From an uncultured Actinomycetes bacterium (lineage in GTDB: Bacteria; Actinomycetota; Acidimicrobiia; Acidimicrobiales; JACDEA01), in assembly GCA_963742585.1 (NCBI GenBank), contig CAVUMI010000005.1:172984-236983 (forward strand): DNA of 64,000 bases, read 5' to 3'. The first letter of the stretch is position 1; every line of letters begins with the position of its first letter. The translations under genes and the position numbers were made by a program. The notes under the pieces are model-generated. The model did no database searches and was not told where the DNA came from. It worked only from the letters and a program-made list of their open reading frames with translations. Shown here one piece after another: positions 8,203-33,387 of this stretch.

Positions 8203-8496
8203 GTGGCCGAGTGGAGCTTCCTGACGAATCACGCCAGGGCGATGGTGTTCATCGCGAATCACGAGGACGCGCGCCTGCGCGACCTCGCCGAGGTGCTCAA
8301 CGTCACTGAGCGGACCGCGTATGGGATCGTCGTCGACCTCACCGAGGCCGGCTACGTGGTCAAGGAGCGCGACGGCCGGCGCAACCGCTACCAGATCCAG
8401 GACCACCTGCCCCTGCGTGACTCGGTGAGTCGCGAGCGGACGATTGGCGAGGTGTTGAAATTGCTGGTCGACCCGAAGCGGCGTATTAAGCGTTAG
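8203..8496 (+). CDS. winged-helix (ArsR/MarR-like) transcriptional regulator
   Basis: 97 aa. ...ARLRDLAEVLNVTERTAYGIVVDLTEAGYVVKERDGRRNRY... is a typical HTH plus wing. Confidence 0.8.
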   Translation: MAEWSFLTNHARAMVFIANHEDARLRDLAEVLNVTERTAYGIVVDLTEAGYVVKERDGRRNRYQIQDHLPLRDSVSRERTIGEVLKLLVDPKRRIKR

Positions 8497-8503
8497 CCGC
8501 GGT

Positions 8504-10112: not shown

Positions 10113-10127
10113 TTCTCGTAATCGAAC

Positions 10128-12167: not shown

Positions 12168-12180
12168 GCGAGGAGGACCG

Positions 12181-13464: not shown

Positions 13465-13469
13465 GCACG

Positions 13470-14768
13470 TTGCTGCGCGTCGCGGCGGTCGATCTCGGCG
13501 CCACCTCGGCGCGTGTCGCCGTCGTCGATCTCGAACGCGAGCCCTTGGTCGCCGAAGTCGTTCACCGTCATCACCATCAGCCCGTCGTGTGGCGGGACGG
13601 CACGTTGCGGTGGGACTGGTTGCGGTTGGTTGACGAGGTCGAGCTGGGGCTGAGCCGCGCGCTCGACGGTGGGCCGCTGGAGTCCATCGGTATCGATACG
13701 TGGGGTGTCGACTACGGCCTGCTCGACGCGAGTGGGTCATTGGTAGCGCCGCCGTTTGCGTATCGCGACGCGCGGACCGCGGGATGGGAAGCATTCGCCG
13801 ACCGCTTGGGCCGCGAGCGTCTCTACCGCACGACGGGAATCCAACTCCTGGCGGTCAACACGGTGTTCCAGCTGGCCGTGCATCCGCGCAAGGAGCTCGC
13901 GGCAGCAACGTCACTTCTGCTGTTGCCCGAGCTGTTGGTCCACCACTTGACCGGCGTGATCACCGGCGAGGTCACGAGCGCGGGAACGACTGCGTTGGTT
14001 GATATCGACACCGGTACATGGTCAGCGGACCTGCTCGCCGACGTCGGTGTGGATGCGGAACTGTTCCCCCCGATCGCCCGGGCGGGGAACCGGGTCGGCG
14101 CGTGGCGCGGCGTTCCGGTGCATCTGGTGGGCGGCCACGACACCGCGTCGGCGGTGGCGGCGCGACCCGCCTATGCGCCGACGGCCAGCGCGTTCGTCTC
14201 GGCGGGCACCTGGCTGCTGGTCGGTGCTGAGCGCCCGGCGCCGGACACATCGGAGGCGGCGCGGCTCGGCAACTTCTCCAACGAGCCCGCCGTGCTCGGC
14301 GGCGTCCGCTTCCTCAAGAACGTCAACGGCCTGTGGTTGCTCGAACGGTGTCGCGCCGCGTGGGGCGACCCGCCGGTCGCTCAGCTGGTCGCGGACGCGG
14401 CCGCGATCCGACCGGGCGGGCCGATCGTCGACCCCAATGACGCCCGCTTCGTCAACCCCGCGGACATGGAAGCCGAGATCCGCGCCGCCGCCGGCTTGGG
14501 CCGTACCGCGAGTCGCGACGTCGTGGTGCGTTGCATCCTCGACTCGCTGGCCGTCGCCACCGCCGGCGTTGTCGCCGAACTCGCCACCTTCCTCGGCGAG
14601 CCGGTGAGGCGGATCGACATGATCGGCGGCGGCGGTCAGATCCCTCTACTCGTCGACCTCATCGCCGACGCCACGGGCGCCGACCTCGAGGTCGGCCCCG
14701 CCGAAGCCACCGCCATCGGCAACGCCATCGTCCAAGGCAATGCCCTGTCCGGCGCGCTCAATCCTTAG
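13470..14768 (+). CDS. rhaB: rhamnulokinase (FGGY carbohydrate kinase)
   Basis: TTG start. The N-terminus AAVDLGATSARVAVV and the motif GIDTWGVDYGLLD are present, and length and context fit rhaB. Confidence 0.9.
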   Translation: MLRVAAVDLGATSARVAVVDLEREPLVAEVVHRHHHQPVVWRDGTLRWDWLRLVDEVELGLSRALDGGPLESIGIDTWGVDYGLLDASGSLVAPPFAYRDARTAGWEAFADRLGRERLYRTTGIQLLAVNTVFQLAVHPRKELAAATSLLLLPELLVHHLTGVITGEVTSAGTTALVDIDTGTWSADLLADVGVDAELFPPIARAGNRVGAWRGVPVHLVGGHDTASAVAARPAYAPTASAFVSAGTWLLVGAERPAPDTSEAARLGNFSNEPAVLGGVRFLKNVNGLWLLERCRAAWGDPPVAQLVADAAAIRPGGPIVDPNDARFVNPADMEAEIRAAAGLGRTASRDVVVRCILDSLAVATAGVVAELATFLGEPVRRIDMIGGGGQIPLLVDLIADATGADLEVGPAEATAIGNAIVQGNALSGALNP

Positions 14769-14936: not shown

Positions 14937-16130
14937 TCAGGACACCAGCAGTTGTCGCTGCGCCATGGGTCCCGCGGGGTAGCTCGAATAGACCCGGTGA
15001 CCGGGGTCGGTGATGTGGAGCGTGCCGTCGGGCTCCAGGCGCTCGGTCCACCCGAGCTTGCGGCGTTTATGCCACAGATGGTGGTGGCGGACACAGCGCA
15101 GGACGCTGTTCTCAAGGCTGGTGACGCCGCCTTCGTCCCACACATCGACGTGATGGGCATCGCACCAGCTCGGCGGCCGGTCACAGCCCGGTTCGCGGCA
15201 GTGGCCGTCGCGCAGGGCGATGGCGTTGAACAGATCAGGTGGCGCGGTGCGCACCGAGCGGCCGTAGTCGAGGATCGCCGAGCGACCGGACTTCAGTACC
15301 CGGTGCAGGTTGCAGTCACAGAGGATCGACTCGATGACCGCGGCCGGCGCGGGGGAGCCGTCGATGAAGCGCCCGGGCAGGCCGGCGTCGAGGTCTCCAC
15401 ATCGGCCACCAGGTTCAGGTGCGGGCGGTGGCGGCCACCGCGCTTGGTGCGCTGGTTGTCCAAGAAGTACTGGCAGATATCGATGAGCGCGTCGGCCCGG
15501 CGTTCCTTGGCCGTGCGGGTCTCGGTCTCTGCGTCGGTGGTGGTGGCAAGTGCCAGGGCGGCGTCGATGACCTGGCCCGGGGCATCGTCATAGGAGCCCC
15601 GCAGCTCGCGCCGGCCACCAAAGGTGCGGGAGAACGACAGCTCGCGGGAGGTCTCGCGTTCGCCGGGCCCCTCATCGAGGGCATCGGCGCGCAGACGCCA
15701 GTCGTTCATGGTCGAGCTGGTGTCGGCCACCGACAGCGGCACCAGGCGGGGGATCAGCTCTTCCTCGTGGGAGGCGAAGAGGCCGACCCGGCGCTGCCGA
15801 GACATTGGCCACGATGGCGCGGACCTGGGAGCCCGACAGCGCACCTGTTTCCCAGGCCGCGGCGGTCACCGGTAACTCGGCTACCCGGGCCGAAACGGTG
15901 GTCAAGGTCTTGGCCGAGCCCCCGGCCATGCGCCCGTGCTCGCGGAGCCAGGAGACCATGGAGACCGCGCCCTCGATCTGCCACTCGCCCGAGTCGGCCA
16001 CCGCGTCGATGGCCGGCGCCAGCTTGGCCTCGAGCCGACTCACCAGCGCGAAGTACTGGCGCAGGCCATCGCAACTCCGCGGCACCTCGAGGTCCTCCAT
16101 CACATCTGCGAGTTCCTCGAGGTCCATCAC
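14937..16130 (-). pseudogene. HNH endonuclease with DUF222 N-terminal domain (REP13E12-like), two frameshifts
   Basis: The readable peptide runs through three frames. ORF 15672..16130 holds DUF222, ORF 15293..15844 the middle, and ORF 14937..15254 the end, with RDGHCREPGCDRPPSWCDAHHV...RCVRHHHLWH. There is one insertion near 15805 and one G deletion near 15397 (gtggag-acctc). Confidence 0.75.
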
Positions 16131-16450
16131 CTCATCGTATGCGAACGTGTGTTCGATTGCAAGGATTTCGAGCCTACAAATAGAGGGAAAATTTCACCGC
16201 GCGGCGACCAATCCGTCGGGGTCGACACCACGCCAGCCGTGGACTCCCCACCGCCACACCCGGCCTCGACGGAGCGCAGCCGAACGCACGGACCGCCGCG
16301 GCACGATGGCGCTGAAGCTCCAACCCATCCGCACGTCGCTCGTCGACCACGCCATTGCTCCTGACAGTTTCGCCGGCTTGTCGCGTGTTTTGAGTCGATG
16401 TTAACTAATGGGGGATTGATCGAAAGCTCACATCGGCGTACGCTTCTTGC

Positions 16451-17275
16451 GTGCTGCGAGAGTTGCCCGATCTCACCGAGCCGTACACGGTGACGCCGGA
16501 GAAGGTGCACGAATTCCGCGAGAAAGGCCACACGTTGTTGCGGCAGGTGGCCGCGCCCGACGAGATCGCATCGTGGGGTCCCTACATCCGCGAAGTGGCG
16601 CTGGCCAACTCGCCAGAGGACCGACCGCTCGAGCAACGGGACACGCTCCTCACCAAGGCCTTCCTGCAGATCCAGAACCTCTGGTGGGTTGACGAGGGCA
16701 TGCGTCGATTCAGCCTGGCGGAACGGTTCGGCCGTATCGCCGCCGATCTGCTCGGCGTCGACGCCGTGCGCATGTATCACGACCAAGCGATCTTCAAGGA
16801 GCCCGGCGGCGCGCTCACGCCGTGGCACCAGGACCAGTACTACTTCCCGCTCGACCGTGACGACATTCTCACGATGTGGATGCCGCTCACCGACGTGACG
16901 CCCGAGATGGGGAGCCTCGTCTACGCGTCGGGTAGCCACAAGCTCGGCTACCTGGGCGAGTTCGAAGCGTCCGAGGAGTCGGAGCGCGTCTTCCAGCAAA
17001 TGATCGTGGACACGGGCATGCAGCTGGAGAGTCCCGGGCCGATGGCAGCGGGCGACGCCACGTTTCACGCCAGCTGGACGCTGCACGGCGCGCCGGCGAA
17101 TCCCACCGATCAGATGCGTGCCGCGATGACGGTGATCTGGTTCGCCGACGGGCTGCGCGGTATCGAGCCCGAGCACGAGTGGCATCAGAAGGATTACGAC
17201 AAGTGGATGCCCGACGTGAGGCCGGGCCAGCTTGCTGCCGGTCGACTCAACCCGCTCGTTTGGCGCCGGTCGTAA
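16451..17275 (+). CDS. phytanoyl-CoA dioxygenase (PhyH) family Fe(II)/2-oxoglutarate oxygenase
   Basis: 274 aa. ...GALTPWHQDQYYFPL... supplies the HxD motif and ...FHASWTLHGAP... the distal His. Confidence 0.85.
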   Translation: MLRELPDLTEPYTVTPEKVHEFREKGHTLLRQVAAPDEIASWGPYIREVALANSPEDRPLEQRDTLLTKAFLQIQNLWWVDEGMRRFSLAERFGRIAADLLGVDAVRMYHDQAIFKEPGGALTPWHQDQYYFPLDRDDILTMWMPLTDVTPEMGSLVYASGSHKLGYLGEFEASEESERVFQQMIVDTGMQLESPGPMAAGDATFHASWTLHGAPANPTDQMRAAMTVIWFADGLRGIEPEHEWHQKDYDKWMPDVRPGQLAAGRLNPLVWRRS

Positions 17276-17285
17276 CCGGGGTGGC

Positions 17286-17789
17286 GTGAGGCGGGCGACG
17301 CTCTTCTTCCTGTGCGCGGCGACGCTGCTGGCCGCCTGCAACACGCGCGGGTACGCGTTCAGGGTCGACGAGAGCATTGACTTCACCGGCCCGAAGGCGC
17401 GGGCCACCGTGAACCTGCCCGTCACCATCACCTGGGCCGACGAGAAAGCACCGGCCACGCTCCGGGCCGACTTCAGGGATCCGACCGCCGAGTACTACGG
17501 CGTGTTCGTCGACCGGGCACCGATCGGGCCCGGCAAGCGACTGACCTCGCTGGTTCCCGACGACGACTCCTGCCGCCGCACTCCCGGCTGTCCCGGTGAG
17601 GCCTACTTCCGCGATCGCGACGTCTTCCTCACCGCGTCGCCGGCGCTGACGCTCGAACTGCTCGACGACCTCCGCCCGACCAACCGGGGCACCAGCAAGG
17701 ATCCCCACGAAGTCACCGTCGTCCGGATGCGCGGCGAGCGCCGGGTCGGCGAGGCCGCGTTCCGCCTCAACTTCTTCGTCCGCCGATGA
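17286..17789 (+). CDS. lipoprotein of unknown function
   Basis: GTG 17286 gives VRRATLFFLCAATLLAAC with lipobox LLAAC. Its stop overlaps the next ATG (ATGA). Confidence 0.6.
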   Translation: MRRATLFFLCAATLLAACNTRGYAFRVDESIDFTGPKARATVNLPVTITWADEKAPATLRADFRDPTAEYYGVFVDRAPIGPGKRLTSLVPDDDSCRRTPGCPGEAYFRDRDVFLTASPALTLELLDDLRPTNRGTSKDPHEVTVVRMRGERRVGEAAFRLNFFVRR

Positions 17790-19956
17790 CCGACGTACTG
17801 GACGACGTCGAGGAAGTCCGCGTCCGCATGCGCGGCGTGGCTCGGGAGGCACTGGGCCTGCACGACGAGGCGCACACCACTTCACTGCGCGAAGGCCTGC
17901 GGTCTGCACGCGTCGGCTGGTACCCGCTGATCGCCCTCTCGATCCTGGTGATCGTCGACGAACTCCAGGGCTACGCGTTCTACGTCCTCGGGCCAGAGAT
18001 CGGCAACACCCTCGGGATCGGCAAGGGCGCGCTGGCCGGCCTGAGCACGCTGAAGATCCTGGCCATCACCCTGGCCACGCTCCCCACCGCCGCCTATATC
18101 CAGCGCCGGGGTCGCCGCGGTCTGATCAGCAGCGTGAGCGCGTTCGCGTGGAGCACGCTGACGCTGTTGACCGGACTGGTCTCCAACGCATGGGGCTTGG
18201 CCGGCGTTCTGCTCGCCGACGGTGCCAGTACCGGAACCGTGCGGGCTACCCACACGCCGCTGCTCATGGACTTCCACCCGCCGGAGACGCGCGTTCGGGT
18301 GTTGTCGTTCTACAGGGGCGCCGACGCCGTCGGAAACGTCATCGCGCCGCTCGGCGTCGGCCTGCTCACCGCAGTCCTCGGGTTCACGTGGCGCGGCGTG
18401 TTCATCATCCTCGGCGCCATCTCCCTTCTCGCCGCGCTCAGTCAGCATTCGCTTACGGGACCCAGGCGTTGGTAAGTGGGACACCGGCCAGGTCCGGGCC
18501 ACTATCACCGACGCCCCGCCCGCGCCGGAGAAGGTCAAGCTCGGCTTCTTCGAAGTCGTGCGCCGCTTGCTCATGATCCCGACGGTGCGCCGCATCCTCA
18601 CCGCCAGCGCAGTGCTCGGCATGTTCCTCGTTCCGCTCAACACGTACTTCTTCTTCTTCCTCGAGGAACGGTGGGGCCTGGGGCCGGGCGGCCGCGGCGC
18701 GTTCTTCGCGGTAATGCCGCTGTTCTCGATGGCCGCGTTCGCGCTGTTCGGCCGACGCGGAGAAGACCTTTTCCAGCGCGACCCAGCGGCCTTCGTCCGC
18801 GTCTCGGCGTGGCTGTTCGGCGCCGGCGCGGTGCTGCTTCCGGTGTCGGTGTACTCCCCGTTCCTCGCCGGGTTGGTGTTGCTGTTCGGCCTCTCGTTTG
18901 CCTGCTTCGGGCTGCTCGCCGTCTCCACGACGATGGTGATGCTGTCGATCGTGCCGGCCAGCATGCGCCCGCACGCGGCGGCTCTAGCCGGCATCTTCAC
19001 TGCCGCAGTTGGCGGCTTCGGGGGGATCCTGTTGCTGGGCGGGATGGAACAGGCGTTGGGCGCTACCGGCGCGATAGGCACGCTGGTGGTCCCCGGCGTT
19101 GTCTCGGCCATCGTGTTGTGGACTGCGGCGCGCACCGTCGATCACGACTTCGACATCATGGTCGACGAGTTGGTGGAGGAGGAGGAGTTCCGCGTCCTGC
19201 GCGAGATGGGCGCCCACCTTCCGCTGCTCGCCTGCCGCGGCGTCGACTTCTCCTACGGCCGGCTCCAGGTGCTCTTCGACGTGAACTTTGCGGTCGATGA
19301 AGGCGAGATGGTCGCGCTTCTCGGCACCAACGGCGCCGGCAAATCCACGTTGTTACGCGTGATCTCCGGGGTGGGCTTGCCGAGTCGGGGCACGGTGCGG
19401 CTCGACGGTGCCGACGTCACGTTCCTCGACGCCGAGCGTCGCGTCGGCGCGCGGTATCACTCAGATCCCGGGCGGCAAAGCGGTGTTCGGTCCCATGACC
19501 GTGCTCGACAACATGCGCGTCTACGGCTTCAGCCACGGCAGTCACCGGGCTGAAGTCGAACGGGGTATCGAGGAGTCGTTCGCCGCGTTCCCGCGCCTGG
19601 CCGAACGTCGCGACCAGTTGGCCGCGACCCTCTCCGGTGGCGAGCAGCAGATGCTGGCTCTGTCGAAGGCGTTCATCGTGCGGCCCCGCCTGCTCCTCAT
19701 CGACGAGCTGTCGCTCGGGCTGGCGCCGAAGGTGGTTGGCGAGCTGCTCGAGATGGTGCGGCGCATCAATGCCACCGGCACCGCGGTGGTGCTGGTCGAG
19801 CAGTCGGTGAACATCGCGCTGTCGGTCGTCGACCACGCGTACTTCATGGAGAAGGGCGAGATCAGGTTCGACGGCCGCGCGGCCGATCTGCTCGGCCGCG
19901 ACGACCTGCTGCGGTCGGTGTTCCTCGAAGGCGCGAGCAAGGGCTTCGGCAAGTGA
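17786..19956 (+). pseudogene. MFS-like membrane domain fused to LivF-type ABC ATPase; two +1 frameshifts (~18445, ~19450)
   Basis: The peptide runs ORF 17786 (frame 2) > ORF 18222 (frame 0) > ORF 19408 (frame 1). It contains Walker [10 protein letters not shown], signature LSGGEQQ and Walker B LLLIDELS. Confidence 0.75.
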
Positions 19957-22795
19957 TGCTCGGCGCACTTGAAATCGAGCGCGTCGACGCTCACCCTCGG
20001 CCTCATCACCGGGATGGCCTACGGCCTTCTCGCCGTCGGCCTGGTGCTCGTCTACCGGTCGAACAAGGTCATCAACTTCGCCCACGGCGAGATCGGCGCC
20101 TTCGGTGCCGCGTTCTTCGGCGTCGCCGTCCTCAAGTGGAACGTGCCCTACTGGGTCGCGTTGCCGCTAGCGCTCGCGGTCTCGGCGGCCACCGGCGCGG
20201 TCGCCGAAGTCGCCGTGGTCCGCCGGTTGCGGGCCGCGCCCAAGCTGATGTCGCTGGTCGCCACGCTCGGCGTGGCGCAGCTGCTGCTGTTCAGCTCACT
20301 GCTCGTCAGCGATGCCGTTCCCGCCGGAAGCCGGTTCCCGCAACCGAGCGGGCTGCCCACCTTCCACATCGGGCCCGTTCTCGTCACCCAGGCTTACGTG
20401 GGCATTCTCATCCTCAGTCCGCTGGTCGTCCTTGCCCTCGTTTTCTTCCTGCGGGCCAGCCGCTATGGGCTGGCCATGCGTGCCGCGGCGGCCAATCCCG
20501 AAGCGGCCCGGATGGCCGGCGTGTTCGCGGCGCGGATGTCGACGCTGGCGTGGGCCATCGCCGGCGGCGTGGCCGCACTCACGTCGGTGCTGCTGAAGCC
20601 CGCCCTCGGCTTTGTCGCCGCGGAGAGCCTCGGGCCCAACTTGTTGTTGCGCGCCTTGGTCGCCGTTGTCATCGCTCGGCTGCAGAGCTTGCCGATCGCG
20701 CTCGTCGCCGGCATCGGCGTGGGCGTGCTCGAGCAAGTGCTGATTCAGAGCTATCCGGATTCGGGCTCGGTCGAGCTCGTGCTCTTCCTCGTCATCCTCG
20801 GCACACTTCTGTTCCAGAGCCGTGGTGGCGGTCGCGAGGAGGACCGAGTCTCGTGGTCGTCGGTGCAACCCTGGCAGCCGCTGAGCGCGATGCTGCGCCA
20901 GTCGCGTATCGCCGGTTGCTTCGGCTCCGGGACCGGGCTCACCGCGCTGGCGATCGCCGCACTGTTGCCGCTGACGGTGTCGAACCAGACCGCGACGACC
21001 TACACCACGATCATTGCTATCGCCATCATTGGTCTGTCGGTCGGCATCGTCGCCGGTCTCGCCGGCCAGTTGTCGCTCGGTCAGTTCGCTCTCGCGGGCG
21101 TGGGTGCCACGGTGTCGATCCATATGGCCAACTGGACGGGCAACTTCCCACTGGCCTTCCTGGTGGCGGGTCTGGCGACCGCGGCGGCGTCGGTACTGAT
21201 CGGGCTGCCGGCCGTCGCGGATCCGTGGCCTCCTGCTGGCGGTCACGACGCTCGCGTTCGCGATCGCCGCCAGTGGCTGGCTGCTGCAGCAGCCCTGGAT
21301 GCTGGGGTCGGGTGAAGTTCCCGGCCGGCCGATCATCGCCGACCGGGTCTTCGACACCGGGCATACGTACTACCTCTTCTCGCTCGTCGTCCTCGTTCTG
21401 TGCCTCTTGCTCGCCCGGAACGTGTGGCGGTCGGGCCTCGGCCGCCGCCTCCGTGCCCTGCGCGACAACGAAGAGGGCGCCCGCGCCTTCGGCGTGGCGG
21501 CAACACGGGTGAAGCTCGAGACGTTCGCACTGGCCGGATTCTTCGCCGGCGTCGGCGGCGCGCTTTACGGCCACACGCCTCTCGCTGCTGAAGCCGAGCG
21601 ACTTCTCGATCACGGCCAACATCGAGGTGGTCGCCCTGGCGGTGATCGGCGGCATCGGTCTGCTGGCCGGACCGCTCATCGGCGCCCTCTACATCATCGG
21701 CCTACCCCGGTTCCTGCCCGGCATCGGCAGCTCGGGCCTGGCTGCGTCATCGCTCGGGTGGCTCATCCTCATCCTCTATTTCCCGGGCGGCCTGGCCCAG
21801 CTCGTGCGACCCGTGCGTGATCGCATCGTGCGGTTGGCGGGCCGGGCAACTGCGACCGCGCCCGACGAAGCCGAAGACATCGACACGGCCGCAGCACCGG
21901 TCGTATCCCTCGGTTCGATGAACCGCTCGGGGCTACGGGCGGCGGCGCTCTCCGCCGCCGAGCCGCTGCTCACCGCCACCGGGTTGGTCAAGCGGTTCGG
22001 CGGCGTACTGGCAGTGGATGGCGTCGACCTCGACGTCGTGCCGCGGTGAGACGCTGGGTCTCATCGGCCCCAACGGCGCAGGTAAGACGACGCTGTTCGA
22101 GCTGCTCGGCGGCTTCACCCGGCCTGACCAGCGGCGCCATCGCCTTCGCCGGCGAGGACATCACCCGGCTCACCCCCGAAGACCGCGCCCGCCTCGGCCT
22201 GGTGCGCTCGTTCCAGGACGCAGCCCTGTTCCCGACGCTCACAGTCATCGAGACGATCCAGCTGGCCTGCGAGCGGCAAGCGACCGACCCGCACGCTGCC
22301 GTCGCTGCTCGGCGCAACCACGGCCGATCGTCGCAAGGGGCGCCGGGCCCGCGAGCTGGTCGCGCTGATGGGTCTCGAGGCATATGCCGATAAGCAGACC
22401 GGTGAACTGTCGACGGGAACGCGACGCATCACCGAGCTGACGTGTGTCATCGCGCTCGAGCCCGACACTGCTGCTCCTCGACGAGCCGTCCTCGGGCGTC
22501 GCGCAGCGGGAGACCGAGGCGCTGGGCGAGCTGCTCGCCCGGGTGAAGCAGCATCTCGGCGCCACCCTTATCGTGATCGAGCACGACATGCCGTTGATCA
22601 TGGGAATGGCTGACCGCATCGTGGCCATGGACTCCGGCGCGGTGATCGCCGCAGGGCACGCCGGCCGAGGTGCGGGCCGACCCGCTCGTCCTCGAGTCAT
22701 ACCTCGGCGGCAGCGCGGTGGCCGTCGAACGCTCGGGCCTGCTGGCGAAGCCGAAGCCGGCGGCGAAGAAGGCAGCAGCAAAGGGGCGGGCATGA
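19956..22795 (+). pseudogene. fused branched-chain-amino-acid-type ABC permease/ATPase (LivH-LivM-LivG); at least 8 +1 frameshifts
   Basis: LivH signature VINFAHGEIGAFGA, LivM LSLGQFALAGVGA and IRGLLLAVTTLAFA, Liv[20 protein letters not shown] and LLLLDEPSSG. Frames step 0>1>2>0>1>2>0>1>2. The end ...TPAEVRADPLVLESYLGG...KGRA* overlaps the next ATG. Confidence 0.75.
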
Positions 22796-25346
22796 GCCTC
22801 TCCGTCCACCGGCTGCGCTGCGAGCACCTGGTCGATCCGCTCGGGATCGACACCACCGAGCCGCGGCTGAGCTGGCAGGTGCACGCGACGCGCAACGGCA
22901 CCGAGCAGGTCGCCTACCAAGTGCTGGCCGCGTCGAGCCCGGATCGGCTGGCCGCGGGCGTCGGCGACCTGTGGGACAGCGGCCGCGTTCGAGTCGGCCG
23001 AGTGCTCCTCGTGCCGTGGAACGGACCTGCGCTGGGAAGCCGTCAACGCGTGCACTGGACGGTGCAGGTGTGGGACGACGTCGGCGACTGCTCCGGGTAC
23101 GCGCCCGCCGCGTGGTGGGAGATGGGGTTGCTCGACGCCTGCGGACTGGAGCGCAGACGTGGATCGCCGCGCCGGAGCCGCACACCGAGTCGTCAGTGCA
23201 TCTACTTCCGCTCATCACTGGTTGTCGACGGACCCGTCCGCGAAGCGCGCGCCTACGCCACCGCACTGGGCGTGTACGAACTGACCGTCAACGGACATCG
23301 CGTGACGACGCGCAGCTTCCTCCCGGGATGGACCGACTACCACCAGCGGATCCAGTACCAGGTGCTCGACCTGACCGATGCGCTGGAGCCCGGCGAGAAC
23401 GAGATCGGCGCCGCGCTGGCCGACGGCTGGTACAGCGGCTACGTCGGCTTCGTCGGCGAACGCGAGCACTACGGCGACACCCCACAGCTACTCGTACAGA
23501 TCGAGGTCGAGACGGACGGCGGGCGAACGATTCTGCACGAGCAGTCCGAGGTGGCAGGCGGGCGACGGGCCGATCCGCGCCAGCGACATGCTCAACGGCG
23601 AGGTGCAGGACCTCAGCCTCACGGCAGGCAACTGTCAGTCGGCGCGGGTCACTGCGGGTACCGACGGCAGCGCGGGTGACCTCGCCGGCGCCGCCGGTGC
23701 GGTGTACCGAGGAACTGGCGCCGGCCAGCGTCGACGCGTACCGGCGCCGACTCGCACCTCGTCGATCTCGGCCAGAACATGGTCGGCACGCTTCGGCTGC
23801 GATTGGACGGGGTGGCCGGCACCGACGTGACGGTTCGTCATGCCGAGATGCTCGACGCCGACGGCGCGCTGTACCTCGAGAACCTGCGCGGCGCAGCGGC
23901 GATCGACCGCTATGTCCTCTCGCGGTGCCGGCGTCGAGATCTGCGAGCCGCGCTTCACCTTCCACGGTTTTCGGTATGCCGAAGTCAGTGGATGGCCGGG
24001 GGAGCTCGACGCCGCAGGACGTCACCGGTGTTGTTCTCGGCACCGATGTCGAACCGATCGGGTCCTTCGCCTGCTCCGACGACCGGCTCAACCAGCCTGC
24101 ACTCGAACATCGTGTGGGGCGCACGCGGCAACTTTCTCGAGGTGCCCACCGACTGCCCGCAGCGCGACGAGCGGCTCGGGTGGACGGGCGACGCGCAGGT
24201 GTTCGTCGAGACGGCGTGCTATCTCTTCGACACCTCGGCGTTCTACGCGAAGTGGCTGCGCGACCTGGTCGACGCGCAGTCCGACGACGGCGGCTTCCCG
24301 GATGTCGCGCCGCGAATCGTCGACCCTGCTGACGGTGCGGCCGGCTGGGCCGACGCCGGCACGATCGTGCCGTGGGTCGTGGCTCGGCGGTTCGGTGACG
24401 ACCGGCTACTGACCGACGCCTATCCAGCGATGCGCCGCTGGGTCGACTACGTGCACGCGGCCAACCCCGGGCTGGTCTGGCTCGAGCGGCGAAACAACGA
24501 CATGGGCGACTGGCTCAACGTGGGAGTCGACACCGACAAGGACCTGATCGCCACTGCTTTCTTCGCGCACAGCACGCGGCTCACGGCGCGAGGTGGCCGG
24601 CCGCGCTCGGCCTCGATGACGCGGCCGAGCTGCACGCGTTGGCCGACGCTATCGGCGCCGCCTTCCGCGCCGCGTTCATGCTCGACGACGGGCGGCTCAA
24701 GTGCGAGACGCAAACCGCCTACGCGCTCGCGCTGCGGTTCGGCCTCGTGCCCCACGACCTGATTGACCGCGGCCGTGGAGCAGCTGGTCGCGGACATAGA
24801 TCGGCGGGGGCACCTGACCACCGGCTTCCTCGGGGTGAACCACCTGTTGCCGGCTCTGTCGATCGGCGGTCGTCACGATGTGGCGTATCGCCTGCTCCTG
24901 CACGACGGCTACCCGTCATGGCTGTACAGCGTGAAGCACGGCGCCACCACGATCTGGGAGCGCTGGGACGGGTGGACGGCTGAGCGCGGCTTTCAGGATC
25001 CGGCCATGAACTCGTTCAATCACTACGCGTTCGGCGCGGTCGGCGAGTGGCTGTATCGCACCGCGGCGGGCATCGGCTTCGACGAGTCGGTCGCCCGGCG
25101 GCCGGGTGCTCGAGATCGCGCCACAGCCGGATCCCTCGCTTGGACTGGGTCGAGGCCACCTGCGACTCGCCGCTCGGGCCGGGTCGGCTGTGCCTGGCGG
25201 CGCGACGATGGAGGGACTGTCTCGATGACCGTCGAAATTCCGGTCGGGCGCGTCGGCGCGCGTGCGCGTGCCCGGCTCCGACGCGCCCGTCGAGGTCGGC
25301 TCGGGCCGTTACGAGTTCACCGCACCCCGCCGAGGAGTCCCGATGA
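22792..25346 (+). pseudogene. alpha-L-rhamnosidase (GH78); about 17 +1 frameshifts
   Basis: N-terminus MSLSVHRLRCEHLVDPLGIDTTEPRLSWQV. Later pieces include ALGVYELTVNGHRV, VDLGQNMVG, FTFHGFRYAEV, EVPTDCPQRDERLGWTGDAQVF and TIWERWDGW, spread over all three frames in strict +1 order. Confidence 0.8.
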
Positions 25347-26873
25347 CCACAGATCAAGCGTCCCGCCCTGGTCGCCGTGGTCGCGGTCGTGGCCATGCTG
25401 TCGGCGGCGTGCAACTCGACGAACCGCCTGGCCGACACCGCTTCACGGCAGTCAAGCGGTCAATGCCGGCGAAGGCCGGACACGGGGCTGGGCGGCGACG
25501 CTGGCCGGCGACCACGCCGACGCCGGGCGGAACCGGCGCGGCGCCGGCCACGGGCAGAACGGTGGGCTCCACCGCGCGTGCCGGCACCAGCGGCACAGGC
25601 GTGCCAGGGACGGCGGCGGCCGGCCCGGGCCAGATGGCGCCGGGCGTCACCGCTAGCGAGATCAAGATCGGCATCAACCTCGTCAAGGGCGGCGAGGCCA
25701 TGGGCAACCTCATCGGCGCCGCACTCAACTTCGGCGACACCGAGGCGCAGGCCAACGCGGTGGTCAACTACATCAACAGCAGAGGCGGCATCGCCGGCCG
25801 CAAGATCGTGCCGGTCTTCTACACCTTCGACCTGGCCCGACTCGGGACTGGCCGACGGCCAGTCCGAGCAGGAGGCCTGCGTGGCGCTGGACCGAGGACA
25901 ACCGCGTGTTCGCCGCCATCAACGTCGCACTGGCCCGCGTCAGGCCCTCCTCGTCTGTCTGGCCAAGCGGGGCGTGCCCGGCATCCACCTCGGCATGCCG
26001 ATGGACGAGCAGACGCTCAAGACGTACCGCGACTACTGGTACAGCGGCTACGGCGGCAGCGGGCCTCACCCTCGACCGGCTGGCCGAGAAGCAGGTGAAG
26101 GTGTTCGGCGCGCGCGGGTGGTTCGGTCCCAACGCGGTCGTCGGCATCGAGTACTTCGACGACCCGTCGTACAAGAAGGTGGTCGACGAGCAGTTCGTAC
26201 CGCTCCTCAAAGCGGCCGGGCGTCAAGAAGATCGTGCTGCAAGGCGCGCCCCGCGGCGGCACGCGAGGCCACCAGCTACGTCGTGCGCTTCCGCAACGAG
26301 GGCGTCACCAACGTGTTGTTCCTCGGCGAGGGCGGGCTCTACCCGCTGTTCTTCATGCGCGCCGCTGACACGCAGGGCTACTACCCGAAGTACGGGCTGA
26401 ACACCGACCAGGCGCCCGGCAGCGTCCTGCAGCGGACGGCGCCGGCTGCGCAACTGCGAAACGCCATCGGCATGGGGTGGACGCCGATCCTCGACGTCGA
26501 CGCGGCGCACGATCCGGGCCCGGTGAACCCAGCAACACGCTTGTGTCTCGACATCATGCGCAGGCGCCGGCCAGGACATGTCGGCGCGCCAGCCGCAGAT
26601 CACCGCGCTGGGCTACTGCCACGGCCTGTTCTTGCTGCAGCAGACGCGCTGGCGTCAGCCAACGCGACATCACCGTCGGCGGCCTGTCGCGCGGGCGTCG
26701 CCGCGCTCGGAACCAGCTTCGCCGTCGCCCGGCGTGTACGGCACCCGGTACAGCGTCGACTGATGCACGACGGCGTCGACGCGTACCGCGACTTCGTCTT
26801 CGACACGGGCTGCAAATGCTTCGTCTACACCAGCCCGCCCAAGCTTTTCCCCGTAGGAGGAAGCGCACGATGA
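25343..26873 (+). pseudogene. LivK-like ABC solute-binding lipoprotein; about 16 +1 frameshifts
   Basis: Lipobox VAVVAMLSAAC. The binding-protein core reads GVTASEIKIGINL...AVVNYINSRGGIAGRKIV...VVGIEYFDDPSYKKVV...VVRFRNEGVTNVLFLGEGG. Both ends are ATGA-coupled. Confidence 0.7.
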
Positions 26874-27737
26874 CACGCCCTGCACGAAACATCGACCTCG
26901 GCCGACGGCGACGGAGCTGCGCCAGCGGCTCGCCGAGCACGGGCTACATGTTCTTCCGCGGGCTCATCGATGCCGACGGCAGTGCTGCGACACCCGTCGC
27001 GCGGTGCTCGGGCGCGCTCGACGAGTGCGGATGGCTGGCCGACGGCTCGGATCTCGACGCCGCGCTGCCGTCGGACAAGGTTCGCCGGGAGGAGGCCAAC
27101 GCCGACCCCGCGTACTTCGAGGCCTACACCGCGATCCAGCGGCTTCAGGCGTTCCACGAACTGGCCCACGCCAAGGGCCTGGTGGCGACGATGGAGCGCA
27201 TCTTCGACGACGCGGTACTCGTGCACCCGCGCAAGATCGCCCGCATCGGCCTGCCGCGCGACGAGTTCGTGGTCGGCGCGCACCAGGACTACCCGCTCAA
27301 CCAGGGCACGCACCGACGTCCTTACCGCGTGGGTTCCGTTGGGTGCGTGTCCCGACGAACTGGGTGGGCTGCGCGTGCTCGCCGGCTCGCAGCAGCCGGG
27401 CTCTGGCCGGTCGAGGCGGTGCCCGAACGTCGGCGGGCTGCGCGTGGCCGACGAAGGTCGACGACGACGCCGGGATGGCTCACGACCGACTTCGAAGCGG
27501 GCGACGTGCTTGTGTTCCACAGCCTTACCGTGCATGCGGCCAAGCGGAACCACACCGACCGGCTGCGGCTGTCGGCTGACTTCCGCTACCAGGCGGTCGC
27601 CGATCCGATCGTGCGAGGACTCCCTCGTGCCGCATTACTTCCCCGTGGTGCCCGGCCACGACGAGCTGACCGCGGGCTGGACATCGCCAACGGCGGTGGC
27701 CGCTCCGGAAGGCCTTACGGTGGTCGCCGTCGTTTGA
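26870..27737 (+). pseudogene. PhyH-family dioxygenase; about 7 +1 frameshifts
   Basis: ELRQRLAEHG/YMFFRGLID, GAHQDYPLNQG, LTAWVPLGACPDELGGLRVLAGS and DVLVFHSLTVHAAKRN are read across frames. Confidence 0.65.
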
Positions 27738-27813
27738 CCCATTCGCCGGCCCACCCGAGCCGGTCCACTCACGTCTCATCCAACTCGTCTCAGGGCTTCC
27801 CGAAAGGACTCCA

Positions 27814-28980
27814 ATGGATCGACGCAGATTTCGTCAAGGCGGGTGCGGCCACGGCCGGGTTGTTGGCCACCGGCGCGTGGCGCCGGCCGGTCGCCGCCGC
27901 GCCGGGCGATCCGCTGCCGCCGCTGGCGTGGCTGCCCACGAGCCTCTCGCCGGTCCTCACCCACACCGCGGTTCCCTCCAACATCGAGACCCAGTGGAAT
28001 CACACCTCGGTTCTCCCTGCCGGCGCGCTGCTGGGCGCCGCGGCGATCGACAAGTGGTACCTGTTCCGGTGGACGCACGACACCAGCCACATCTACCTCT
28101 ACACCGCGCCAAAGATCACTGGGCCGTTCACGCTTATCCCCGGGTCGGCGACGCGCCCACCCCGTATCCCGCGGGCTACATCGTCGGCCACTTCTCCTCC
28201 GGCGACATCGTGTGGGATCCGGTTGGTAAGCAGTTCGTGTCGTCACCACACGGCGTGCAGGATCACATCGTCCCCGGCAACGCCGAGCCCATGCAGGACT
28301 CGTTCATCATCACGTCCAAGGACGGGCTCAACTGGGAGTGGGAGGGCGGTGACAACCGGCCGCGGCTGCGCTGCGGCGGACCTGGCACGCCCGATGGCAT
28401 CCACACCGGCTACGGCCGGTTGTTGCGGGACATGAACGGCAACATCACCACGCACCACGGGCGCTACTGGTGGATCTACCGGGCCCAGCAACTCGACGTC
28501 GGACATGAACCCGTTAGCGCCGACGTTCCGCGCTCTTGGTACGAAGTACACGCCGTATCTGGCCAGCGCGGCCAGCCTCAGCAGTGACTTCGACCAGAAG
28601 CAGAAAGCGTTCGACTCCTACACCTTGAACTCGGCCTGAAGCCTTCGGCTGCTTCCTGCGGGCCGGCGGCACCCATCACACCTACATCGGCCAGGGGCTA
28701 CCCGACCCGCCGATTGTTCCGACGAAGTCGGTGTACTACCGCACCCTGACGGACGACATGACGTTCGTCCCGGTGCCGATCGTCCCTGTCATGCCGACGA
28801 CGCCGCGGGGCGCCATCATCGACGACAGCACCGATCATCCGCGACCCGGAGACGGGGATGATCTACCTGTGTCACACCACCGCGGCGCTCAACCCCGACC
28901 CGAGCCTCACCTCCACAGTCGAGGTATGGGTGTACCGCGCCACCGAGCTCCCCCAAGTCCGCATCAAGCTGCTGCAGTAG
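27814..28980 (+). pseudogene. Tat-signal secreted protein of unknown function (possible beta-propeller glycosidase); at least 5 +1 frameshifts
   Basis: MDRRRF then a shift to VKAGAATAGLLATGAW gives the twin-arginine motif RRRFVKAG. Later pieces include KWYLFRWTHD, FIITSKDGLNWEWEG and the end VEVWVYRATELPQVRIKLLQ*. Confidence 0.55.
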
Positions 28981-29055
28981 TCGACTAGCCCTCGCCGAAC
29001 TGTCAGTGAAAACGTAGGCAAACCCCCGCCGCGATTCCGCTGTCAGTGCGTAGGA

Positions 29056-30853
29056 CTAGCCGACGGGGAAGTAGACGGTGTAGGGCTCGTCGATGACGCT
29101 GTAGAGCGGCACGAAACGGAAGCCGTTGTCGATGCCATGGGTGCGGTGGGTGTACTCCTGGAATGCGCCGTCGAGGGCGCGCTCGGCGTCCGGCCGGAGC
29201 ATCGTCGTCGGGTCGGTCGACATCACCGCGCAACAGGCGCTCGCCGTCGCACAGGCCGGCCAGGACGACCGGCCCGTCGACGAAGGCGACGGTGTCCGGT
29301 GCGTCGGGGAGCGCTGGCGCGACCACCCGGCGCGGGAGCTCGAGCCGCATCGTCGAGTGGTGCCACTTCCGGTGCAACCGATGGATCGTGCCCGGCGCGT
29401 TCGGTAGCTCGATCCGTTCACCGTCGATGTCGATCACGGCCGCGGCCGGCCAGCCAGCCGGGGAGTCGCAGCCCGATCGCGGTATCGGTTGGGCTGTCGC
29501 AGTCGACCGACAGCTCGACGACCATGGCGTCGGGGCGGCGGACGGGCCGCACGGCGCGGTAGTCGGCCTTGCCCGGGTCGCCCGGCCGTGACTCGAAGCT
29601 CTGGCGAACGCGCGACCGGCCCGCTCGGAGTTCGCTCGGCACGTACTGCGCGACGACGATGCCATCGGCGTCGTTGAAATAGACGTCATCGGCGTGTTCG
29701 GCGTGGGCTTGTACCAGCGTGGCCACGCAACACCAGAAGCTCTCGGTGGGCGTCGACCACGTCTTGCGGCCGCCGCCGCGCAGCGGCAGGTAATAGGTGA
29801 CCATGCCGGTCGCCGGGTGCTGCTGCGCCAGGATGCCGTTGTAGAGGTTGCGCTCGCGGTAGTCGGCGTATTCCGGGTCACCGGTCCAGCGGAGCAGGTA
29901 CGACGCCAGCCGGTTCATGTTGTAGACGGTGCAGTGTTCCTGGGTGGTGTCGCTCAACCGGGCCGACAGTTCGCCCGGCGCGGCCCATACCTCGGCGCTA
30001 GGTCTGACCGCCGGTGCAGAACTGGTCGCGACGCGTGACCGCGCAGTCCCAGTACGCCTCGGCGATGTCGCGCCAGCGCTGCTCGCCGGTGACCTCCCAC
30101 GCGCGGGCCGCGCCGTGCGCCTCGGGGATCGTCATGTTGGCGTGATGGTTGGTGAGGATGTCCTCGCCGGCGAGCAGCGGGTCGAAGAGCCGCCGCCGGT
30201 AGTAGCGGTTCATCAGCTCGAGGTGCTCCTCGTCCTTCGTGACGGCGAAGAGATCGGCCCACAGTTCGAGCATGGCGTTGGTCTCGAAGTCGAACAGCTC
30301 GTCGAGCTCGTCGCTGACTCATCGCGCCGGTCCACCGTGAGAACCACCGCGCTGCGTTGACCACGATGTCGAGAGCCTGCTCGTTGCCGGTGAGCCGGTG
30401 CGTCTCGAGGAGACCCATCAACGTCTTCTGGGCGACGTAGTGCGGCGCCCAGATGGGGCGGCCCTGCGCGATCCAGTGGAGGTACTTCTCGGGTATGCCG
30501 GCGACCCACTCCCCGCCGTTGGCCTCCTGGCAGCGACCCAGACCGGCGACGACCTCTTCGACCTGCGCGCCGAGCACCGCATCCGGCGCGACGATCGAGA
30601 CCCGTGCCGCGGCGGCCAACCAGTGGCCGACGAAGTGACTGCGCACCTGGGAGTTGGGCGACTCCCACCCCCAGTGGATGTCGCCGGGCTTCTCCGGCGG
30701 CCCCCACAGTCCCGCCTCGAAGAGGTGGTTCTGCAGCAGGTTCTCGGTGCGCAGGCTGCGGAGGTAGCGGTGGTTGAGGTCGAAGCGTTGCTGAAACAGC
30801 CCGGGCTGGAGCCGTACACGGCCGGGAGCGAACGGCTGGAAGACGTCGGTCAT
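29056..30853 (-). pseudogene. GH127 / DUF1680 beta-L-arabinofuranosidase-like glycoside hydrolase; 4 single-base insertions
   Basis: The peptide runs ORF 29954..30853 > 29998..30273 > 29418..29957 > 29003..29881 > 29056..29421 (ends mod 3: 1,0,2,1,0). The family-like stretch is ...CTVYNMNRLASYLLRWTGDPEYADYRERNLYNGILA...SFWCC. Confidence 0.75.
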
Positions 30854-30857
30854 GTGA

Positions 30858-32477
30858 TCACTTCGTTATCGGCAACGTCACGCGCGACGGCCGGGCGCCG
30901 CCGAGGTGCACAGTCTGGTGGGCGCCGTGGAGCGACGTCGCCTCGCCGGCGTGAGCATTCGTCGACGGGTTGCGATCGAGCCGCGGAAAATTCGATGACG
31001 ACACGTCCACCCGTATGCGGTGCCCGGCGCGGAAGCAGAGGGCGGTCGACCCTACCGCAACCTCCACGTAACGGGGACGGCCCGGCGTGAACGCCAGACG
31101 GCGTACCGAGTCCACGACGTTGAATGCGCGTCCGTCGGGGTGCACGTCCACCAGCTTGACCGTGACGTCGGCCGACTGGCCTGTGGTCGAGAAGCGGATC
31201 GTGGCCTTAACCGGCCCGATCACCGTGAGGTCGCGGCTCAGGGGATCGGACGTATAGACGAGGACGTCGGGCCGCGCTCTCGACCGGGCGCTGGTCGACG
31301 GGTCCGGCCATCGGCAGGAAGGGACCGAGGGCGCGGCCGCCCCGGGTGGGGACGGGGTCGTGCGGGTCGTAGTCGAAGGTGTCGATCGACCGCGTGGGGG
31401 GTGCCTCGGGAGATCGCAGCGCGCCGCCCGAGCCCAGGTACAGGTCGGTCTCGGTGGCCGGCGGTGGCCAGTCAGTGAAGTCGCGCCACTCGTTCAGGCC
31501 CATGACGAAGAGCCGGGCGCCGCCCTCGACGCTCTCACCATCGACAGCCCGACGCACCCAGCGCAGCGCCTCACCCCGGACATCGGCCGCCGGTCCCGAG
31601 GTCGGACCGAACGCCATCTCCGGAGTCGCGTCGGCGAACAGACCGGCGTGCGTCCACGGTCCGACGACGATGCGCTGACCAGCCCGTCGCGCTCGACGGC
31701 GCCGCGGTGGCCAGGCCTTTCCACGCCCGCAAGGAGCCATCGCAGAACAGGTCGAACCAACCGGCCACGTGGAAGGCGGGCACGTCGATGTGCTTGAACG
31801 CCTTCGCGACCGCCACCGGGCGCCACGTCGGCCGGGGGTCGACGGCCAGCCATTCGGCAAACGCCGGGAACGCGTCGCGCACGGGGTGATCACCGAGCGT
31901 GTGTGAGTAAAGAGCATCGAAATCGGACGCGAGCTCGGCGCGCTGGGCGAGCGCCGCGGGATCCGCACGCGGGTCGCTGGCCGCCATCAGCAGCGCCCAC
32001 GGCATGGCGAAGCCGAGCTGCAGCGCGCCGCCCTCGTAGGTCCAGCCCTCGTCGTACCAGGCCGAGGTGACCATCGGCGCCATCGCCCGGAGGGCGGGCG
32101 GCCGTTCGGCCGCGGCAAGCCACTGGGTCGCGCCGAGGTAGCTCGCGCCCCAGCCGGCGACGCGGCCATCCGACCATGGCTGGCGCGGCGCACCAGGCGA
32201 TGGTGGCGGCGCCGTCCTTGCGTTCCTGGCGGAACGGATCGAACGAACCCTCGGAGTCGAATCGGCCGCGGACGTCCTGGATCACCACCGACCAACCCAG
32301 TTGTGTCAGCCCGACAACGTCCTCGGCGGCGCGTGACGCGGCGCGTGAGTACGGCGTGCGCACCAGAAGTGTGGGCCGGGCGACACCGTTGTCGACGGTG
32401 GCTACGTCGGCGGTCAGCACGGTGCCGTCCCGCATCGGGATCAGCGCCTCCTCGACCCGTATCGCTCCTCCGCCCAT
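30858..32477 (-). pseudogene. CocE/NonD (X-Pro dipeptidyl-peptidase S15) family hydrolase; 3 single-base insertions
   Basis: LVRTPYSRAAS...GWSVVIQDVRGRFDSEG, then the cap domain, then GPWTHAG, then the C-terminal beta-sandwich ...VKLVDVHPDGRAFNV...HRIRVDVSSSNFPRLDRN. ORF ends mod 3 are 2,1,0,2. The start is either 32477 or 32510. Confidence 0.75.
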
Positions 32478-32535
32478 ATCCCCTCTGTGAAGTCTTGTTG
32501 AATCGAACATTACCGTCAGTTACCGTCACACCGCG

Positions 32536-33387
32536 ATGGCTGTTCAGTTAGAGGCCGGTTCGGCCCGAGTAGCGATCTTTCCGGAACACGGCGGCCGGCT
32601 GGGCCAGATCGAGATCGATGGCACGCCTCTGCTCCGCGGCTCCGAAGATGCGCAGCTCGGCTGGGGTTCCTGGGGGAGTTATCCGTTGCTGCCGTGGTCG
32701 AATCGCATCCCCGACGGTCGGTTCGAATTCGAGGGTCGCGAGCTGCGCGTGCCGGTGAACTTCGACGACGGCAGCGCGCTTCACGGACTGACCGCCTGGC
32801 TGCCGTGGACTGTGACCGAGAGCGACGCGACGCGTGTCGGACTCGAAGTGGCGGTAGCCGAAGGTTCATACGACGTCGTCGGTCGCCAGACGTTCGCTCT
32901 CACCGAGACCCACCTCGACCAGACCCTCGAGGTCATCAACCGCGGTACCGACCGGGTGCCGGTCGGGTTGGGGATCCACCCGTGGTTCCGGGTCGGGCCG
33001 GTGCAGGTGCCGGCCGACGAGATGTGGCCGGGCGACGGTCCGATGCCCACCGGGCCGCCGGTGCCGGTCGGTCCCGACGAGGACCTGCGTACCAAGCGCC
33101 TCGCCCCACCGATGGACCGGTGCTACACCGGTCTGAGCGGCATGTCAGCGGAGATCGCCGCCTTGCGGCTCCACTGGTCGGATCCGATCACACAAGTTGT
33201 CGTCTTCAGCGGTGTCTCCGAGTACGTGTGCGTCGAGCCGGTCACCATGGCCAACGACGGCTTCCGCCTCGCCGAGGCAGGTGTGCTCGGCACCGGCGTT
33301 ATCGCCCTCGACCCCGGCGAGTCGACCTCGGTGCTCTATCGCTTCGAATGGAATAGTGGTGCGCATGTCGACCGACCTGGGGTTTGA
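32536..33387 (+). CDS. aldose 1-epimerase family protein
   Basis: 283 aa, intact. ...[22 protein letters not shown]...[11 protein letters not shown]... is typical of the mutarotase fold. Confidence 0.85.

Follow-up and report, generated by a model that had tools for sequence, protein, structure and literature searches.

Insertion-biased frameshifts across a rhamnoside uptake and hydrolysis cluster, probably left by a poorly polished long-read consensus

Gene content of the frameshifted block

The window analyzed here is a 64,000-nucleotide stretch of a contig from an uncultured Actinomycetes bacterium. It harbors eight consecutive genes (Table 1) that the first-pass annotation had described as readable only by hopping between frames, and this was borne out for all of them across positions 17786 to 32477. 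The three intact genes used as boundary controls and a flanking DeoR gene, aligned by the same method, contain no events. The gene order of the block is syntenic with that of the loci L081, L082, and L083, and the start and stop overlaps from gene to gene are kept once the extra bases are skipped. The PhyH-family oxygenase has no in-frame stop after its last aligned codon, and the 383-aa protein with a Tat-like N-terminus gave no match in searches of Pfam, NCBIfam, and PDB.

As read from their translations, intact open reading frames at 10122-14757 encode a RhaD-like aldolase/dehydrogenase, a rhamnose isomerase, and a rhamnulokinase, and the same rhamnose-catabolic families were found by Pfam in the upstream region of L082. 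The GH78, transport, and accessory hydrolase genes (Pfam and NCBIfam) stand beside rhamnose catabolic genes in conserved synteny, as expected of a rhamnoside cluster.

Table 1. Genes of the block and boundary controls, with the frame-breaking events placed by alignment to orthologues and the extra bases absent from the independent metagenome X1
Feature	Position	Strand	Orthologue (aa)	Events	Position of events	Absent from X1
PhyH_a, left boundary control	16451-17275	+		0	intact	
hyp147, left boundary control	~17280-17789	+		0	intact	
MFS_1 domain fused to LivF-like ABC ATPase	17786-19956	+	724	2	+1: ~18440-18443, 19446	T18442
LivH-LivM permease fused to LivG-like ATPase	19956-22795	+	938	8	+1: 19977, 21217, 21578, 22038, 22132, 22277, 22461, 22654	C19976, G22043
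GH78 alpha-L-rhamnosidase	22792-25346	+	842	16	+1: 23137, 23156, 23202, 23536, 23663, 23739, 23923, 24011, 24096, 24762, 25090, 25133, 25182, 25246, 25325; +2: 24599	C23202
Peripla_BP_6 (LivK-type) substrate-binding lipoprotein	25347-26873	+	483	13 (six references agree)	+1: 25844, 25887, 26061, 26215, 26264, 26565, 26690, 26724; +2: 25937, 26645, 26662, 26759; ambiguous: ~25460-25530	T25842
PhyH-family 2OG-Fe(II) oxygenase	26872-27800	+	305	10 (at least)	+1: 26935, 26972, 26988, 27010, 27311, 27422, 27453, 27466, 27620, 27729; -1: 27395	
Conserved uncharacterised protein, Tat-like N-terminus	27814-28980	+	383	6	+1: 27829, 28504, 28833; +2: 28137; -1/-1 pair: 28630, 28638	
GH127-family glycoside hydrolase	29056-30853	-	599	4	+1: 30310, 30000, 29441, 29221	C29443, T29999
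CocE/NonD-family (Peptidase_S15) hydrolase	30858-32477	-	538	3	+1: 32186, 31693, 31275	
Aldose 1-epimerase, right boundary control	32536-33387	+		0	intact	

Number, sign, and distribution of the events

The frameshifts were counted by frameshift-aware protein-to-DNA alignment against intact syntenic orthologues, the approach that the first-pass annotation had proposed for an exact count of both signs. Events of +1, +2, and -1 were allowed at about equal cost, and the intact syntenic locus L081 served as the main reference for all eight genes. This resulted in 62 frame-breaking events between positions 18440 and 32186, in line with the approximately 60 first estimated; the per-gene figures given at that time were 2, 8, 17, 16, 7, at least 5, 4, and 3, in the order of Table 1. 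As to sign, 51 events were +1, 8 were +2, and at most 3 were -1 (sign test, 51 versus 3, p = 3e-12; 51 versus 11, with every +2 taken as a deletion, p = 3e-7), and the field carries approximately 67 to 70 surplus bases and at most 3 to 5 missing ones. What had been described as a field of one sign only is therefore a strong insertion bias with rare exceptions, since the -1 event at 27395 was reproducible with different references and the window lacks bases at 23003 and 23306 relative to X1, each 10 to 12 nucleotides from an extra base. The -1/-1 pair in the Tat-signal gene can equally be read as a +1 event plus a one-codon gap. As previously claimed, no in-frame nonsense codon interrupts the block (0 stops in 4,768 aligned codons).

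On intact DNA the aligner made no false calls, and simulated mixed-sign indels were recovered in 45 of 45 cases, 44 of them with the right sign. The events were reproduced with other references (L082, L083, P0001, P0002, P0004, P0006, and P0007). Scanning genome contigs with a piece of the GH78 gene yielded only relatives of at most 45% identity, which were used for the first alignment and not for base-level pinning. A plain tblastn search with the same gene returned one long HSP in which the frameshifts were masked, because triplets of +1 events restore the original frame. An f1>f2>f1 order in the codon-usage Viterbi path had suggested mixed signs, but the frameshift-aware alignment resolved it into short intermediate frames.

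From 18 to 32 kb, the number of events per kb was 1, 2, 0, 2, 5, 7, 4, 9, 12, 8, 5, 2, 2, 2, and 1. This is a bell-shaped profile, with approximately 1 per kb at the edges and 9 to 12 per kb at 25 to 27 kb, and a block-wide density of 4.2 per kb. The sharp boundaries initially proposed were not found, and the field runs past the proposed end at 32100 to a last event at ~32186. An arrangement in which the events group as "bridges" joining clean anchors was also considered and dropped (spacing CV, 0.91; p = 0.66).

The first-pass annotation had also placed frameshifts outside the block, and for four a Pfam domain running across the junction gave confirmation. Across the ~50 kb of flanks, there are at least these four (~0.1 per kb), three of them +1. 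In L082, a related 4.1-Mb contig of a metagenome-assembled genome (MAG), +1 frameshifts were observed in three orthologues, and a fourth has a +2/+1 pair that is uncertain; no -1 event was seen. The mostly +1 frameshifts of the flanks, together with the +1 pattern of L082, point to an assembly-wide, insertion-biased error mode.

These observations bear on whether the genes are genuine, very recent pseudogenes, with approximately 65 single bases put into the island by a real process that inactivated all eight genes. The frameshifts are indeed present in the sequence as given. Nevertheless, we consider such an origin very unlikely. In place of the mixed lesions of a genuine pseudogene field, nonsense codons are absent and deletions make up at most 3 to 5 of approximately 70 indel bases, although spontaneous bacterial indels tend toward deletions; the low-density +1 bias also recurs in unrelated flank genes and in another MAG. 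To our knowledge, no natural process would leave +1 insertions alone, at a density of 4 per kb and with no substitutions beside them. An insertion-only mutational or templated process, by which approximately 65 real, non-homopolymer insertions would have outpaced any substitution or selection signal, is in our view likewise very unlikely.

Comparison with an independent metagenome

A search of sequencing runs returned no run for the block query, and the flank queries returned only X1, an independent, short-read-like soil metagenome of the same organism. Over the ~11 kb of flank covered, X1 is ~99.9% identical to the window, with 9 substitutions and no indels. In the block, X1 represents a related haplotype, 95 to 99.6% identical, and over the ~3.6 kb covered, 10 bases of the window have no counterpart in X1 and 2 bases of X1 are missing from the window. 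At all seven covered sites where the orthologues had indicated a frameshift, the extra base was absent from X1, so that accurate reads obtained independently from the same organism do not show these lesions. With a lower likeness threshold for X1, one more indel was listed (25842); two other look-ups gave none, and one loose end led to two further pinned sites. That the tract is a haplotype distinct from that of X1 makes lineage-specific changes, and hence genuine pseudogenes, conceivable, but a relative so close in the flanks has none of the seven testable lesions. Strictly, X1 shows that a close relative, being a close haplotype and not the source library, is without the insertions, rather than that the source DNA is, and we count this against an artefact.

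Substitution divergence between the window and X1 in the block ranged from 0.4 to 4.8%, with 0.4 to 1% at the edges and 2.5 to 4.8% at 22 to 26 kb, and the insertion density tracks this local divergence. Of 47 substitutions, 35 fall at third codon positions; synonymous changes number 34 and non-synonymous ones 13. Where exactly one allele of a non-synonymous site matched L081, it was that of the window in six cases and that of X1 in one. Therefore, the base calls of the window correspond to a functional sequence under purifying selection, and the mostly synonymous divergence indicates a selected, functional-looking divergent haplotype with scattered insertions. A raised substitution error in the block was ruled out on the same grounds; insertions without an accompanying excess of substitution errors do, on the other hand, count against an artefact. 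For genuine pseudogenes, the conserved alleles and the lack of relaxed selection beside 62 disabling lesions are a further difficulty. Taken with the sign bias and the lack of nonsense codons, this unrelaxed selection makes for an error spectrum of a technical type. The earlier suggestion of population heterogeneity, put forward as an island present in only part of the population, holds in modified form, as a tract where the haplotype of the window truly diverges from that of X1.

Ten extra bases could be pinned against X1 (T18442, C19976, G22043, G22991, C23202, C23316, T25842, C29443, G29614, and T29999), and each differs from both of its neighbors. With pinning based on orthologues, runs of three were seen at only 5 of 23 resolvable sites, about the chance rate by a rough estimate. 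The link to homopolymers that had been proposed is thus not upheld, and the junction assigned to aaa 19972-19974 is actually C19976. Extra bases that never duplicate a neighbor, unlike classic homopolymer-length errors, weigh against an artefact, and this context, atypical of long-read errors, is a point in favor of genuine pseudogenes.

The same context bears on biological decoding, that is, programmed ribosomal frameshifting, transcriptional slippage, or RNA editing that would leave the genes functional as written. Apart from the preserved coding potential, nothing speaks for it, and we give it next to no credence. The 62 sites have no common motif, homopolymer, or slippery tract, and orthologues and close relatives specify these proteins with no such extra bases. 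We know of no bacterial system that deletes single transcript bases at dozens of unrelated sites, and the absence of the extra bases from X1 and of a common sequence context effectively refutes such decoding.

An artefact might also arise by the stacking of alleles, in which two haplotypes are collapsed and the consensus passes both alleles of a single nucleotide polymorphism (SNP) in tandem, leaving a one-base insertion. The density of insertions does scale with the real SNP density between haplotypes, and pinned bases that differ from their neighbors are what two alleles require. Moreover, at four of seven unpaired sites the sequence allows a reading as a pair of alleles at the third codon position (AG[T/C], AT[C/G], CC[G/C], and CA[T/C]). 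However, four of seven is the chance expectation of two thirds, and three sites misfit a third-position SNP. The frameshifts of the flanks and of L082 lie outside any demonstrated heterogeneity. We hold this sub-mechanism to be possible but doubtful.

Origin, significance, and comparison with known systems

We consider, with a probability of about 0.9, that the block is a poorly polished patch of long-read consensus over a strain-variable tract and not a biological event. This agrees with the first reading of the locus, which favored a long-read patch of low quality or without polishing over true pseudogenes and is supported by the absence of extra bases from X1 at 7 of 7 sites, the absence of nonsense codons, the synonymous substitutions, and the indel rates. 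Beneath it would lie an operon cluster for rhamnoside uptake and hydrolysis that is intact and under selection, from which the published consensus would differ over approximately 14 kb by spurious single extra bases. This most likely came about because the block is a strain-variable tract of divergent haplotypes, where read support or short-read polishing of the assembled haplotype was probably poor, so that an insertion-biased long-read consensus may have been left uncorrected. Platform, read depth, and the way in which polishing failed are inferences on our part. Published rates are consistent with this origin. Long-read metagenome assemblies carried 474 indels per 100 kb when unpolished and 22.8 when polished, and short-read polishing corrected 172,854 insertions versus 12,674 deletions, a ratio of ~14 to 1 (PMC6487183). 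The density of the block approximates the unpolished rate of 4.7 per kb, and that of the flanks is of the same order as the polished rate of 0.23 per kb (PMC6487183).

The main value of the finding is a quality flag. Annotation of the 284.5-kb contig would give eight pseudogenes or dozens of gene fragments at a locus that almost certainly holds an intact cluster for the uptake and hydrolysis of rhamnosides. Any pseudogene tally, assessment of pathway completeness, or estimate of "genome decay" made from this genome would be wrong. For builders of long-read MAGs, the error field coincides and scales with a real tract of haplotype divergence. Since the spurious bases would be insertion-only and are not linked to homopolymers, they would be missed by homopolymer-aware polishers. 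Were the insertions true, which is very unlikely, they would represent an unprecedented mutational signature.

Genuine pseudogene fields, such as those of Mycobacterium leprae and recently host-restricted pathogens, combine nonsense codons, deletions, and insertions under relaxed selection. The block resembles them in that adjacent genes are disrupted while homology is still recognizable, but it is without nonsense codons, almost without deletions, and its divergence is dominated by synonymous changes. In endosymbionts, frameshifted genes are rescued by transcriptional slippage at poly(A) tracts, which requires a long homopolymer at the lesion. There too, genes frameshifted by a single base may still give protein, but the lesions described here have no long homopolymer tract. 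Indel and frameshift errors in long-read assemblies reportedly fragment predicted proteins, as Watson and Warr are said to have described in 2019. The block shares with such errors (PacBio CLR or Nanopore) a dense set of single-base indels that breaks up every gene but leaves the coding potential otherwise in place; errors of this type remain wherever polishing with short reads is unsuccessful. Residual long-read errors are usually described as homopolymer-length errors, whereas no homopolymer is lengthened by any of the 10 pinned insertions, and the errors here crowd into a single 14-kb tract of graded density, which coincides with a divergent haplotype.

Frameshift counts and signs in the block

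With a window G+C of ~69%, open reading frames (ORFs) by themselves are little informative. A frame tracker (a codon-usage Viterbi model trained on the window's long high-GC3 ORFs) placed dense frame switches at 18.4 to 32.5 kb and, elsewhere, switches mostly at gene borders. ABC ATPase, BPD_transp_2, GH78, and PhyH domains were found with Pfam in the longer pieces of the block, and the family assignments of the cluster genes agree with NCBIfam. Compared with the genome collection, a GH78 piece had relatives at ≤45% identity only; the stitched read-through of the binding protein had homologues at up to 71% identity, and the contigs encoding them yielded L081, a 27.7-kb contig with the gene order of the window and all genes intact. 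Two more related loci, L082 and L083, were identified.

The block was aligned with L081 proteins using a custom protein-to-DNA aligner that skips one base (+1), skips two (+2), or re-uses one (-1) at near-equal penalties. This resulted in 62 events, comprising 51 +1, 8 +2, and 3 -1. Each +2 call most likely reflects two insertions close to each other. Positions and signs recurred with independent references, including a -1 at 27395, and one +2 resolved into two +1 events. The aligner made no calls on intact L081 DNA and recovered 45 of 45 simulated mixed-sign indels, 44 with the right sign (deletions were called -1 in 18 of 19 cases); therefore, the sign bias is not made by the method. The first-pass annotation, which had described eight genes broken by single-base insertions, was confirmed in its core, with remarkably close event counts. 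Its claim of no event of opposite sign does not hold given the three -1 calls, but the excess of insertions remains strong (51 versus 3; sign test, p = 3e-12). As it had stated, the eight block genes contained no in-frame stop across 4,768 aligned codons, and it was right about double steps through short intermediate frames: in GH78, +1 triplets restore the original frame, so plain tblastn returns one long HSP. Operon start/stop overlaps were also restored once the extra bases were skipped (ATGA 17786, TGATG 19954, and ATGA 22792).

Rather than being sharply bounded, as had been proposed, the event density forms a bell without sharp edges (counts in 1-kb bins, 18 to 32 kb: 1, 2, 0, 2, 5, 7, 4, 9, 12, 8, 5, 2, 2, 2, and 1), and spacing in the dense part is compatible with a Poisson process (CV, 0.91). 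Frameshifts with a Pfam domain across the junction occur at low density in the flanks, where +1 accounts for three of the four confirmed.

Cluster genes in the order of L081 (protein lengths and strands from L081), frameshift events called with L081 references, and other features of the window
Feature	L081 protein	Window	L081	L083	Events
DeoR					0
Upstream PhyH					0
147-aa protein	147 aa				0
MFS-ABC fusion	724 aa				2
LivH/M/G fusion	938 aa				8
Both transporter genes		17786-22795	2492-7479	2867-7794	
GH78	842 aa				16
Peripla_BP_6 binding protein	483 aa				13
PhyH	305 aa				10
383-aa protein	383 aa	27814-28980	12402-13553		6
GH127	599 aa (minus)				4
CocE/NonD	538 aa (minus)				3
Aldose epimerase					0
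Three long unbroken ORFs		10122-14757			
DUF222/HNH gene (flank)		15006-16170 (-)			~15795, +1; ~15394, -1 or +2
HlyIII gene (flank)					~49488, +1
DedA/VTT gene (flank)					~56940, +1
Further flank candidates					~8892, ~45190, ~46487

Gene content of the cluster

The transporter architecture is unusual yet conserved in the window, L081, and L083: one fusion protein joins an MFS_1 domain to a LivF-like ATPase, a LivH-LivM-LivG triple fusion is partnered with the Peripla_BP_6 binding protein, and the fused genes are located within a glycoside-hydrolase cluster. The conserved 383-aa protein, with a Tat-like N-terminus, had no significant match in Pfam, NCBIfam, or PDB sequence; it lies invariably between PhyH and GH127 in the cluster and is a candidate uncharacterized enzyme. 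Judged by reading of their translations, the three unbroken ORFs between DeoR and the block probably encode a RhaD-like aldolase/dehydrogenase, a rhamnose isomerase, and a rhamnulokinase; L082 carries Aldolase_II/adh_short, AP_endonuc_2, and FGGY genes at the matching position, and in L081 DeoR immediately adjoins PhyH. The DUF222/HNH-endonuclease-type gene, itself frameshifted, has the rhamnulokinase gene on one side and the upstream PhyH gene on the other and looks like a mobile insertion; in L083, PhyH directly follows the kinase.

Extra bases and divergence relative to a soil metagenome

One soil-metagenome run, X1, contains 6 to 7% of the flank words. X1 contigs at ≥95% identity showed 9 substitutions and no indels over roughly 11 kb of flank (our estimate, from depth tables). 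Over roughly 3.6 kb of block, X1, here a close haplotype, lacked one window base at 18442, 19976, 22043, 22991, 23202, 23316, 25842, and 29443; G29614 and T29999 were likewise missing at two soft-clipped contig ends. Seven unpaired sites are orthologue-called +1 events, and all seven orthologue-inferred events inside X1 contigs were absent from X1. X1 also has an added base after 23003 and after 23306, giving compensated micro-shifts (22991/23003 and 23306/23316) in which an extra and a missing base 10 to 12 nt apart re-code 3 to 4 residues and escape protein-level frameshift detection; 29614 is listed among them, its partner lying past the contig end.

Each of the ten pinned extra bases is unlike the base on either side, a property expected, by our estimate, in about one of two random insertions (p ~0.001). 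The earlier homopolymer link is thus not upheld; the junction assigned to aaa 19972-19974 is really C19976, in LivHMG codon 7. Orthologue-based pinning placed 5 of 23 resolvable sites in GGG runs, about chance at this base composition by a rough estimate.

X1 depth in the outer block is close to flank depth (2 to 3.5x), indicating that at least the outer parts of the island are present in the X1 population; no X1 contig at ≥95% identity covered 25.6 to 29.2 kb. Substitutions between the window and X1 rise from 0.4% at the block edges to 2.5 to 4.8% at 22 to 26 kb. Codon position 3 holds 35 of 47 substitution sites, 34 of the 47 are synonymous, and where exactly one allele at a nonsynonymous site matches L081, it is the window's in six cases and X1's in one; the window's base calls therefore represent sequence under purifying selection. 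The block substitutions are evolutionary, the insertions alone being anomalous. Positions 18000 to 33000 show true, mostly synonymous divergence from the X1 haplotype (0.4 to 4.8%), the flanks being ~99.9% identical, which suggests a recombined or strain-variable island allele within an otherwise near-clonal population.

The density of insertions follows this divergence. Such scaling, like the never-equal-to-neighbor rule, is consistent with collapsed haplotypes, the consensus giving the two alleles one after the other at some SNPs, a narrower variant of an assembly artefact that is not otherwise supported: third-position compatibility was 4 of 7, versus two-thirds by chance.

Origin of the frameshifts

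The most economical account of the block frameshifts is a consensus artefact, and the earlier preference for an unpolished or low-quality long-read patch stands. The contig would have been assembled from error-prone long reads with insertion-biased residual errors, and correction may have failed progressively toward the center of a tract in which the assembled haplotype has thin coverage or departs from the dominant haplotype. Genuine pseudogenization of the eight genes is highly improbable, as it would need ~65 insertions essentially without deletions, nonsense codons, or relaxed selection, none of them common with X1 despite flanks ~99.9% identical. Because the sites share no context and the relatives are intact, biological decoding can be excluded. 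The field of frameshifts is not a real biological feature; the value of the finding is as a warning on assembly quality.

Other assemblies of this lineage seem to share the insertion-biased error mode. L082, a 4.1-Mb MAG contig of a related organism, has clear +1 frameshifts in three orthologues (~5978, 8096, and 20284; split orthologues at 4395-10004 and 19999-20818) and an uncertain +2/+1 pair close to the N-terminus of hyp147, with no -1 in its orthologues.

Unlike classic long-read homopolymer errors, the ten pinned spurious bases never equal a neighbor. In published long-read metagenome assemblies, short-read polishing lowered indels per 100 kb from 474 to 22.8, taking out 172,854 insertions versus 12,674 deletions (PMC6487183). 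The 4.2 events per kb of the block resemble the unpolished rate, and the flanks, where four or more frameshifts are confirmed over ~50 kb (~0.1 per kb), are of the same order as polished assemblies.
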